This document shows positions 49,101 to 53,322 of a DNA stretch of 64,000 nt, piece by piece. The stretch lies in NCBI RefSeq assembly GCF_011045215.1, contig NZ_CP049201.1. One strand, 5' to 3'. Numbering within the stretch: position 1 is the stretch's first letter; each line of letters opens with the position of its first letter. Position numbers: made by a program. This stretch comes from Escherichia coli. Lineage in GTDB: Bacteria; Pseudomonadota; Gammaproteobacteria; Enterobacterales; Enterobacteriaceae.

Positions 49101-52100
49101 CGGCGCTTCTCAGGATTCAAGAGCTGGTTACAGTTACTGAGGACTGAACAAGGGCGCTCTTGTAAAAACAAGAGTTTTCTCGTGGTTTCGCCGAACTGTC
49201 ACACTTACGTTCGGTTATGTGCTTAATAATGTTATGAAAAAGAAACCGGTTGCGCAGTTGGAGCGTCAGCATTCACTGCTGGAAAATCCATGTGCTTATG
49301 GGTTGTTATCGCAGTTCCAGGCTGCGATAGTCGTTAACTGTTTTACACTTAATAAAATAATTTGAGGTTCGCTATGTCTGACGACATGTCTATGGGTTTG
49401 CCTTCGTCAGCGGGCGAACACGGTGTACTACGCTCCATGCAGGAGGTTGCAATGAGCTCCCAGGAAGCCAGCAAGATGCTGCGTACTTACAATATTGCCT
49501 GGTGGGGCAATAACTACTATGACGTTAACGAGCTGGGCCACATCAGCGTGTGCCCGGACCCGGACGTCCCGGAAGCTCGCGTCGATCTCGCGCAGTTAGT
49601 GAAAACTCGTGAAGCACAGGGTCAGCGTCTGCCTGCACTGTTCTGTTTCCCACAGATCCTGCAGCACCGTTTGCGTTCCATTAACGCCGCGTTCAAACGT
49701 GCGCGGGAATCCTACGGCTATAACGGCGATTACTTCCTTGTTTATCCGATCAAAGTTAACCAGCACCGTCGCGTGATTGAGTCTCTGATTCATTCGGGCG
49801 AACCGCTGGGTCTGGAAGCCGGTTCCAAAGCCGAGTTGATGGCAGTGCTGGCACATGCTGGCATGACCCGTAGCGTCATCGTCTGCAATGGTTATAAAGA
49901 CCGCGAATATATCCGCCTGGCATTAATTGGCGAGAAGATGGGGCACAAGGTCTATCTGGTCATTGAGAAGATGTCAGAAATCGCCATTGTGCTGGATGAA
50001 GCAGAACGTCTGAATGTCGTTCCTCGTCTGGGCGTGCGTGCACGTCTGGCTTCGCAGGGCTCCGGTAAATGGCAGTCCTCCGGCGGGGAAAAATCGAAGT
50101 TCGGCCTGGCGGCGACTCAGGTACTGCAACTGGTTGAAACCCTGCGTGAAGCCGGGCGTCTCGACAGCCTGCAACTACTGCACTTCCACCTCGGTTCGCA
50201 GATGGCGAATATTCGCGATATCGCGACAGGCGTTCGTGAATCCGCGCGTTTCTATGTTGAGCTGCACAAGCTGGGCGTCAATATTCAGTGCTTCGACGTC
50301 GGCGGCGGTCTGGGCGTGGATTATGAAGGTACTCGTTCGCAGTCCGACTGTTCGGTGAACTACGGCCTCAATGAATATGCCAACAACATCATCTGGGCGA
50401 TTGGTGATGCGTGTGAAGAAAACGGTCTGCCGCATCCGACGGTAATCACCGAATCGGGTCGTGCAGTGACTGCGCATCACACCGTGCTGGTGTCTAATAT
50501 CATCGGCGTGGAACGTAACGAATACACGGTGCCGACCGCGCCTGCAGAAGATGCGCCGCGCGCGCTGCAAAGCATGTGGGAAACCTGGCAGGAGATGCAC
50601 GAACCGGGAACTCGCCGTTCTCTGCGTGAATGGTTACACGACAGTCAGATGGATCTGCACGACATTCATATCGGCTACTCTTCCGGCACCTTTAGCCTGC
50701 AAGAACGTGCATGGGCTGAGCAGCTTTATTTGAGCATGTGCCATGAAGTGCAAAAGCAGCTGGATCCGCAAAACCGTGCTCATCGTCCGATTATCGATGA
50801 GCTGCAGGAACGTATGGCGGACAAAATGTACGTCAACTTCTCGCTGTTCCAGTCGATGCCGGATGCGTGGGGGATCGACCAGTTGTTCCCGGTTCTGCCG
50901 CTGGAAGGGCTGGATCAAGTGCCGGAACGCCGCGCTGTGCTGCTGGATATTACCTGTGACTCTGACGGTGCTATCGACCACTATATCGATGGTGATGGTA
51001 TTGCCACGACAATGCCTATGCCGGAGTACGATCCAGAGAATCCGCCGATGCTCGGTTTCTTTATGGTCGGCGCATATCAGGAGATCCTCGGCAACATGCA
51101 CAACCTGTTCGGTGATACCGAAGCGGTTGACGTGTTCGTCTTCCCTGACGGTAGTGTAGAAGTGGAACTGTCTGACGAAGGCGATACCGTGGCGGACATG
51201 CTGCAATATGTACAGCTCGATCCGAAAACGCTGTTAACTCAGTTCCGTGATCAAGTGAAGAAAACCGATCTTGATGCTGAACTGCAACAACAGTTCCTTG
51301 AAGAGTTCGAGGCAGGTTTGTACGGTTATACCTATCTTGAAGATGAATAATTAAGATTATTCTGCTGGCGGGTCGATTTATTTACGTAAATCGGTCCGCT
51401 TTCTTTTTATATATTCTTAAAAATAATTTAGCTGCTTTTCTTATTAAATAATCTCCCTACAATCGCTGCATTAATTAAATGCAGAGGGAACGGTTATGAA
51501 AAAATGGAAAGTACGCAGCGCGTTGGTGGCATTAATCGTGCTGCTGGCCGGTTGTTCCAGTAATGCGCAGTATAATAGCAGTGCATCGGGCAATGTCGGC
51601 ACCGCCTGGGGTGGGGATGTGCACTCAACGGTTCAGGGCGTATCTGCTGAGCGAGCCTGGCGCGATCCGGCGGAGATGATCGTTATTAGTTATTCGACTA
51701 ATGTTCCTTCCGGCTACGACCGCGTTTATAGCATTCGTATTAACGAACTGGAATATGCTATTCGCGATGGTAATTTTAATTCTCTACCTATTACGCGTGT
51801 TTATGATTCATCTAATAATGAACCACGCTATATTGTCCATGCCAGAGTCGGAATGAATTATCAATTATATGTCCGTAATTACAGTCGTAACACCAACTAC
51901 GAGATCGTTGCTACGGTTGATGGCCTGGATGTGCTGAACGGCAAGCAAGGTTCGCTGAATAACAACGGCTATATTGTGAATGCCGGAGATTCTTTAGCGA
52001 TTAAAGGATTCCGCAAAGATAAACATACCGAAGCGGCTTTTCAGTTCGCCAACGTTGCTGATTCCTACGCAGCCAATTCGGCGCAAGGCGATGTGCGTAA

Positions 52101-53322
52101 TACCGGGGTAATCGGCTTTGCCGCCTTTGAATTACAAGGCCCGGCGCAAAACGCGCTGCCACCGTGCTCTGGACAAGCTTTTCCAGCAGATAACAATGGC
52201 TATGCGCCGCCACCGTGTCGGAAATAGCAACCTCGCTTGATGCCTCGCCCATTTAAGGCGATAATTAGCACAAACTTGTGTTTCGCAAATCCAACCCTTC
52301 CTCGTCGGGCCTAACGACGCGGAAGGGTTTTTTTATATCGACTTTGTAATAGGAGTCCATCCATGAGCACCTTAGGTCATCAATACGATAACTCACTGGT
52401 TTCCAACGCCTTTGGTTTTTTACGCCTGCCGATGAACTTCCAGCCGTATGACAGCGATGCTGACTGGGTGATTACTGGTGTGCCGTTCGATATGGCCACT
52501 TCTGGTCGTGCGGGGGGACGCCACGGTCCGGCAGCTATCCGTCAGGTTTCGACGAATCTGGCCTGGGAACACAACCGCTTCCCGTGGAATTTCGACATGC
52601 GTGAGCGTCTGAACGTCGTGGACTGTGGTGATCTGGTATATGCTTTCGGCGATGCCCGTGAGATGAGCGAGAAGCTGCAGGCGCACGCCGAGAAGCTGCT
52701 GGCTGCCGGTAAGCGTATGCTCTCCTTCGGTGGTGACCACTTTGTTACGCTGCCGCTGCTGCGTGCTCATGCGAAGCATTTCGGCAAAATGGCGCTGGTA
52801 CACTTTGACGCCCACACCGATACCTACGCGAACGGTTGTGAATTTGACCACGGCACCATGTTCTATACCGCGCCGAAAGAAGGTCTGATCGACCCGAATC
52901 ATTCCGTGCAGATTGGTATTCGTACCGAATTTGATAAAGACAACGGCTTTACCGTGCTGGACGCCTGCCAGGTGAACGATCGCAGCGTGGATGACGTTAT
53001 CGCCCAGGTGAAACAAATTGTGGGTGATATGCCGGTTTACCTGACCTTTGATATTGACTGCCTGGATCCTGCTTTTGCTCCAGGTACCGGTACCCCGGTA
53101 ATTGGCGGCCTGACCTCCGATCGCGCCATTAAACTGGTACGCGGCCTGAAAGATCTCAACATCGTTGGAATGGACGTAGTGGAAGTGGCTCCGGCATACG
53201 ATCAGTCGGAAATCACTGCTCTGGCAGCGGCAACGCTGGCGCTGGAAATGCTGTATATTCAGGCGGCGAAAAAGGGCGAGTAAGCACCAGATGCGATGCG
53301 CACGGGTAAAACGTGCCATTAA

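Follow-up and report, generated by a model that had tools for sequence, protein, structure and literature searches.

In the stretch of Escherichia coli DNA analysed here (64,000 nucleotides of contig NZ_CP049201.1, assembly GCF_011045215.1; hereafter the window), a lipoprotein gene lies between speA and speB. This arrangement raises the question of whether the gene was inserted into a polyamine operon, where it could affect speB expression, or whether it belongs to the locus and was lost from K-12. The explanation that we favour, and hold with considerable confidence, is that the lipoprotein gene is ancestral at this site and self-transcribed, that it was lost in the K-12 lineage and that it has little effect on speB.

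Layout of the speA–speB locus

The original prediction described a 243-aa lipoprotein ORF with signal peptide and lipobox in the gap of about 1 kb between speA and speB, and the stretch that it delimited coincides exactly with the spacer between the two genes (Table 1). The ORF is the sole long one in this 1012-bp spacer, so that no integrase or transposase ORF is present there. The mechanically called ORF of speA begins four codons upstream of the annotated start, at a TTG at 49362.

Over positions 40000-60000 of the window, the closest of 5426 complete E. coli genomes reaches only 98.9% identity over 20 kb; for the speA–speB region the maximum is 99.5%, and the nearest complete genomes there are of the O157:H7/O55:H7 type. 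The window thus derives from a lineage without close representatives among the complete genomes labelled E. coli, possibly a Shigella or a divergent E. coli. Downstream of speB and before loiP (53274-53467), the Rfam family naRNA4 gives sub-threshold matches, the best of which (minus strand, 53372-53467) scores 46.4 bits, below the gathering score of 59.5. Our reading of these matches is that they are tandem REP-type palindromic repeats.

Table 1. Features in and around the speA–speB spacer (window positions).
Feature	Position	Strand	Remarks
metK		-	In the window beside the speA–speB locus; ORF calls and annotation of matching E. coli loci
speA, biosynthetic arginine decarboxylase, 658 aa	49374..51350	+	Annotation of matching E. 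coli loci, tblastn
speA stop codon TAA	51348-51350		
speA–speB spacer, 1012 bp	51351-52362		
Segment absent from the short allele, about 877 bp	51351..52227	+	speA stop+1 to lipoprotein stop; pairwise alignment to K-12 J53
T1, intrinsic-terminator-like hairpin	51367..51410	+	15-bp stem 51367-51400, then TTCTTTTTAT
TACAAT, -10-like hexamer, putative own promoter	51458..51463	+	32 nt 5' of lipoprotein ATG; -35 weak
Shine-Dalgarno GAGGGA	51484..51489	+	6 nt 5' of lipoprotein ATG; GGG invariant in cross-genus alignment
Lipoprotein CDS, 243 aa	51496..52227	+	
Signal peptide (predicted)	51496-51552	+	
Lipidated Cys20 codon (predicted)	51553-51555	+	Lipobox prediction
59-nt tail after lipoprotein stop	52228..52286	+	Two small hairpins
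Promoter-like TTGATG-17-GATAAT	52237-52265	+	Called by scan
T2, hairpin	52293..52334	+	AACCCTTCC-TCGTCG..CGACG-GGAAGGGTT, ending in U7; shared with K-12
speB ribosome-binding site AGGAG	52351-52355	+	
speB, agmatinase, 306 aa	52363..53283	+	ATG 52363; annotation of matching E. coli loci, tblastn
loiP, tkt			In the window beyond speB; annotation of matching E. coli loci

The lipoprotein gene and its family

The 243-aa ORF is a real gene, as judged by its 74% amino acid identity to the Salmonella orthologue, a pN of 0.16 against a pS of 0.74 in that comparison and a mean pLDDT of 84.5 for the AlphaFold model of its product. The lipoprotein is under purifying selection (pN/pS about 0.2 against Salmonella), and within Escherichia the protein is 95-96% identical across species. 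Further homologues are found in Citrobacter, Klebsiella, Kluyvera and Raoultella, and more distant ones, with ~40% identity, in Paracoccus, Variovorax and Acidovorax. In total, an exhaustive profile search retrieved 4188 clusters at 50% identity (E <= 1e-3), and the best explanation is that the lipoprotein belongs to a large uncharacterised family of envelope proteins of diderm bacteria. Searches of Pfam, NCBIfam and the PDB gave no significant profile or structure match for it; its nearest known counterparts include MATH/TRAF-type beta-sandwich domains (SPOP, USP7, TRAF1/6). The gene has a GC content of 0.488, with a window mean of 0.481, and a GC3 of 0.467 versus 0.61 in speA and speB; the low GC3 would fit either an old foreign origin or low expression.

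The N-terminus reads MKKWKVRSALVALIVLLAG followed by CSS, with predicted cleavage before Cys20. Its signal peptide combines a basic n-region (MKKWKVR) with a hydrophobic h-region (SALVALIVLL), a layout seen throughout the homologue alignment, and residues L17-A18-G19-C20 (LAGC) match the lipobox pattern [LVI][ASTVI][GAS]C. Cys20 is invariant in 90/90 aligned homologues. An Asp at position +2 is the inner-membrane retention signal of Enterobacteriaceae lipoproteins; here the +2 residue is Ser21, not Asp. The product is probably a Lol-sorted lipoprotein anchored in the outer membrane.

Besides Cys20, 18 residues are invariant across the 90 aligned members, all of which are present in the window protein, and the same alignment contains the conserved motifs GTxWGE, YEIVATVDGLDV, GFRK and AFPAD..YAPPP. 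The AlphaFold model is all-beta, with pLDDT values >90 in the core; a disordered tether (residues 19-30) precedes the beta-sandwich core (residues 33-215), which is followed by the Pro-rich tail that carries the last of these motifs. The lipoprotein would thus consist of a single compact all-beta (sandwich) domain held to the outer membrane by a short flexible tether. Longer members of the family were scanned for fused domains, and their N-terminal extensions proved to be low-complexity linkers with no Pfam match. One member, P0276, appears to be circularly permuted: the GTxYGE segment, N-terminal in other members, lies at its C-terminus.

Two alleles in E. coli and their polarity

Among the 5426 complete E. 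coli genomes, the long allele with the gene (counted where at least 80% of the 1012 bp is present) occurs in 3550 and the short K-12-type spacer in 1867 (34%). J53, a K-12 derivative, has a gene-less spacer of 137 bp, and MG1655 and BL21(DE3) have the same short spacer; strain 042, of phylogroup D, has the K-12 allele as well. The statement that speA and speB are nearly adjacent in K-12 is borne out by the K-12 loci, and a check for the same gene between speA and speB in K-12 found it absent. The K-12 junction is nearly always 100% identical among the 1867 short-allele genomes, and a 61-nt sequence of the K-12 spacer is confined to them and never found beside the gene. Most of the 3550 long-allele genomes have an intact ORF, as does the window. 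Further decay is rare: strain E6 (H1) carries an IS1 insertion, and in strain 23CRST038 (H20) the copy is partial; a frameshifted 174-aa variant of the lipoprotein has 448 member sequences. The locus is an ordinary strain-variable gene with two discrete alleles.

The order speA-gene-speB is also found in four other Escherichia genome species, namely E. whittamii, two Escherichia sp. and one genome that is labelled E. coli but treated in the collection as a species of its own, as well as in Citrobacter freundii, C. gillenii, C. portucalensis, Klebsiella sp. and K. spallanzanii. Of the gene, the E. albertii contig includes just the 3' portion, with speB after it, and in Salmonella the gene lies directly 3' of speA. 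Because the gene occupies the same site in other Escherichia, Citrobacter and Klebsiella and follows speA in Salmonella, the comparison argues that speA-lipoprotein-speB is the ancestral arrangement and the short form a derived loss in the K-12 lineage. The gene would already have been in the speA–speB spacer before Escherichia, Salmonella, Citrobacter and Klebsiella diverged, and the K-12 lineage, together with 34% of complete E. coli genomes, would carry one derived allele from which about 877 bp, with T1, the putative promoter and the CDS, has gone. Since K-12 has the derived state here, genes that are 'extra' relative to K-12 should not be called insertions without outgroups.

Divergence of the K-12 spacer

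The 61-nt K-12 sequence (J53 locus L001, 3441-3501) is a diverged counterpart of the 59-nt tail that follows the lipoprotein stop codon in the window. The two share the same architecture (-35-like element, hairpin, GATAAT, hairpin), and their alignment beats those of shuffled sequences (17/1000). The short allele is not a simple recent deletion, because its spacer matches the tail at only 35/55 positions (about 64%) although the tail itself is identical at 58-59 of its 59 positions (about 99%) across Escherichia species; in the flanking speA and speB, K-12 and the window share 97-98.5% identity. A short stretch could have been replaced by another allele, with the conserved end of speA and the invariant T2 as anchors; alternatively, a deletion could have been accompanied by local rearrangement. 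Replacement by an allele from another lineage may account for the excess divergence of the K-12 spacer; no donor was found.

Two other origins were considered and rejected. The direct repeats that were found (D3 and D5) do not match the K-12 breakpoints, as a simple deletion between repeats would have it, and K-12 speA is E. coli-like throughout, contrary to a foreign origin of its 3' end. Only the last two variable sites of K-12 speA (-19 and -4) depart from all other Escherichia sequences and match other genera; they are a suggestive hint of a foreign 3' end, from too few sites.

Hairpins and promoter-like elements around the gene

Conserved terminator-like hairpins flank the lipoprotein gene on both sides. 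T1 begins 16 nt 3' of the speA stop codon, folds with -18.5 kcal/mol (z = -3.8) and has a U-rich tract after its stem. It is missing from K-12, and the same hairpin is found in Salmonella. Across 8 sequences from 4 genera, 7/14 of its pairs show compensatory changes on both sides, and this covariation is good evidence for reading T1 as a conserved terminator, presumably that of speA, which would separate speA from the gene. The stretch after T1 is AT-rich and contains the hexamer TACAAT, whose TAC..T pattern is conserved in the alignment of E. coli, Salmonella, Klebsiella and Citrobacter. Since a consensus promoter scan of the spacer did not call this hexamer, we can only infer that it is the gene's own weak promoter.

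On the speB side, the CTTG and GATAAT of the tail are invariant in the long and short alleles of E. coli and in Klebsiella and Citrobacter. T2 is a strong hairpin 28 nt 5' of the speB ATG. Its 21-nt core CTCGTCGGGCCTAACGACGCG, unique in the window, is exact in 14/14 loci that include the region upstream of speB (the long and short alleles of E. coli, four other Escherichia genome species, E. albertii, three Citrobacter, three Klebsiella and a distant enteric), and its outer stem shows only wobble or compensatory changes among them. No promoter fits in the interval between T2 and speB. Presumably T2 both terminates the lipoprotein mRNA and forms a leader or attenuator of speB. Every speB transcript must read through it, and T2 is thus a candidate for an attenuator or a regulatory leader of this gene, or else for the 3' end of an sRNA derived from a 3'UTR. 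Rfam has no family at either T1 or T2.

Taken together, these elements suggest that speA transcripts would stop at T1, that a weak promoter with the conserved TACAAT would drive the lipoprotein gene and that its mRNA would end at T2; the gene is most likely a transcription unit of its own. The promoter-like element near speB and T2 are kept in both alleles, and the long allele adds T1, the putative promoter and the CDS upstream of them. Because the control region next to speB is common to both alleles, having or lacking the gene probably makes little difference to speB expression, at most via read-through from speA. For polyamine biology, the gene would be relevant only if such read-through contributes to speB expression.

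Alternative explanations

The original prediction took the gene to be inserted, and a horizontal insertion by this strain into an operon in which speA and speB were ancestrally adjacent would agree with its absence from K-12, BL21(DE3) and 1867/5426 genomes and with its GC3 of 0.47 next to 0.61 in the flanking genes. However, all other Escherichia species sampled carry the gene at this site, as do Citrobacter, Klebsiella and Salmonella; target-site duplications, flanking direct or inverted repeats and mobility genes are all absent from its boundaries; and the K-12 spacer keeps a diverged copy of the sequence 3' of the gene. We consider insertion extremely improbable, and that part of the prediction is not supported. 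The gene might instead be a functionless remnant decaying in E. coli and intact in this strain by chance, as the several routes of loss would suggest: the deletion allele in 34% of genomes, the IS1 insertion in E6, the partial copy in 23CRST038 and the 174-aa frameshift variant. This is very unlikely, given an ORF that most long-allele genomes, like the window, have kept intact, a protein that hardly varies (95-96% identity) across Escherichia species, a pN far below pS against other genera and the retention of all invariant residues of the family.

A functional role within the speA–speB operon deserves the same weighing. As a co-transcribed member tied to polyamine physiology, for example in binding agmatine or putrescine at the envelope, sensing them or exporting them, the gene would by its presence matter for speB expression. 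It lies on the same strand as its neighbours, in a position between speA and speB that is conserved over four genera and could reflect co-regulation rather than inertia, and with T2 so close to the speB ATG (28 nt) all speB transcripts cross sequence shared with the 3' end of the lipoprotein transcript. Against this, the covarying terminator T1 stands between speA and the gene, homologues in Comamonadaceae lie between hisD and hisC and others in unrelated contexts, and a third of E. coli dispense with the gene while the speB-proximal region remains unchanged. We judge operon membership unlikely. The suggestion that the gene lies inside the polyamine operon and could affect speB expression is doubtful, because T1 would separate it from speA and because the promoter-like element and leader hairpin next to speB occur in both alleles. 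An ancestral, independently transcribed gene that the K-12 lineage has lost remains the reading that we prefer.

Previous annotation and possible function

Thousands of genomes already carry an annotation of the gene, under the names lipoprotein, hypothetical protein or membrane protein. RefSeq entry WP_000758914.1 ('lipoprotein', from E. coli of the O157:H7/O55:H7 type; strain 108, C9E37_RS04500) is the same gene in the same place, with a 1012-bp spacer that is 99.4% identical and no difference of substance; the cluster of proteins of this type (>=97% identical) has 4753 member sequences. The orthologue in Salmonella enterica is annotated as 'outer membrane lipoprotein' (UniRef cluster of A0A701H2Z8_SALTM); it is likewise 243 aa long (74% identical) and follows speA directly, but there a GntR/mannitol-dehydrogenase gene block comes after the lipoprotein gene, where speB would be. 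A literature search by locus description, protein accession and locus tags found no study of the gene. Most pathogenic E. coli lineages (O157:H7, O55:H7) have it, and so do Salmonella, Klebsiella and Citrobacter, whereas laboratory strains lack it, and this absence would explain why the lipoprotein has gone unstudied.

The invariant polar residues R53, N128, E136, D142 and R173 suggest a defined putative binding site, and we infer a ligand- or partner-binding role rather than an enzymatic one. That the protein serves as an outer-membrane-anchored, periplasm-facing binding or scaffold domain, dispensable under many conditions, seems to us at best about evenly balanced. More tentatively, and with doubt outweighing belief, the lipoprotein could be the enterobacterial member of a large envelope-lipoprotein family (about 4200 clusters at 50% identity, no Pfam model, a beta-sandwich fold without solved relatives) that has a specific conserved envelope function, possibly the cause of its retention by speA and speB, and that is perhaps unstudied because K-12 is without it; in the same tentative vein, and as a separate matter, the K-12 allele may have come from another lineage by replacement rather than have arisen by plain deletion. 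A conserved, uncharacterised and structurally confident lipoprotein that laboratory strains lack is a cheap target for a knockout. The remaining interest of the locus lies in this uncharacterised family, in the odd divergence of the K-12 spacer and in the ultra-conserved T2 hairpin 5' of speB.

Non-enteric gene neighbourhoods of the family are unrelated to polyamines, and outside Comamonadaceae the homologue is isolated. In five non-enteric or paralogous contexts we looked for recurrent neighbour genes and found none, except for a small ORF in Comamonadaceae. In this group, including Variovorax (loci L009, 6001-7205, and L013, 5001-6171), the homologue lies within a histidine operon and is followed by the small ORF, of 115-122 aa, which in one case has a weak Pfam match to Rap1a (T6SS immunity). 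The his-operon homologue is a second example of a member of this family nested in a biosynthetic operon.
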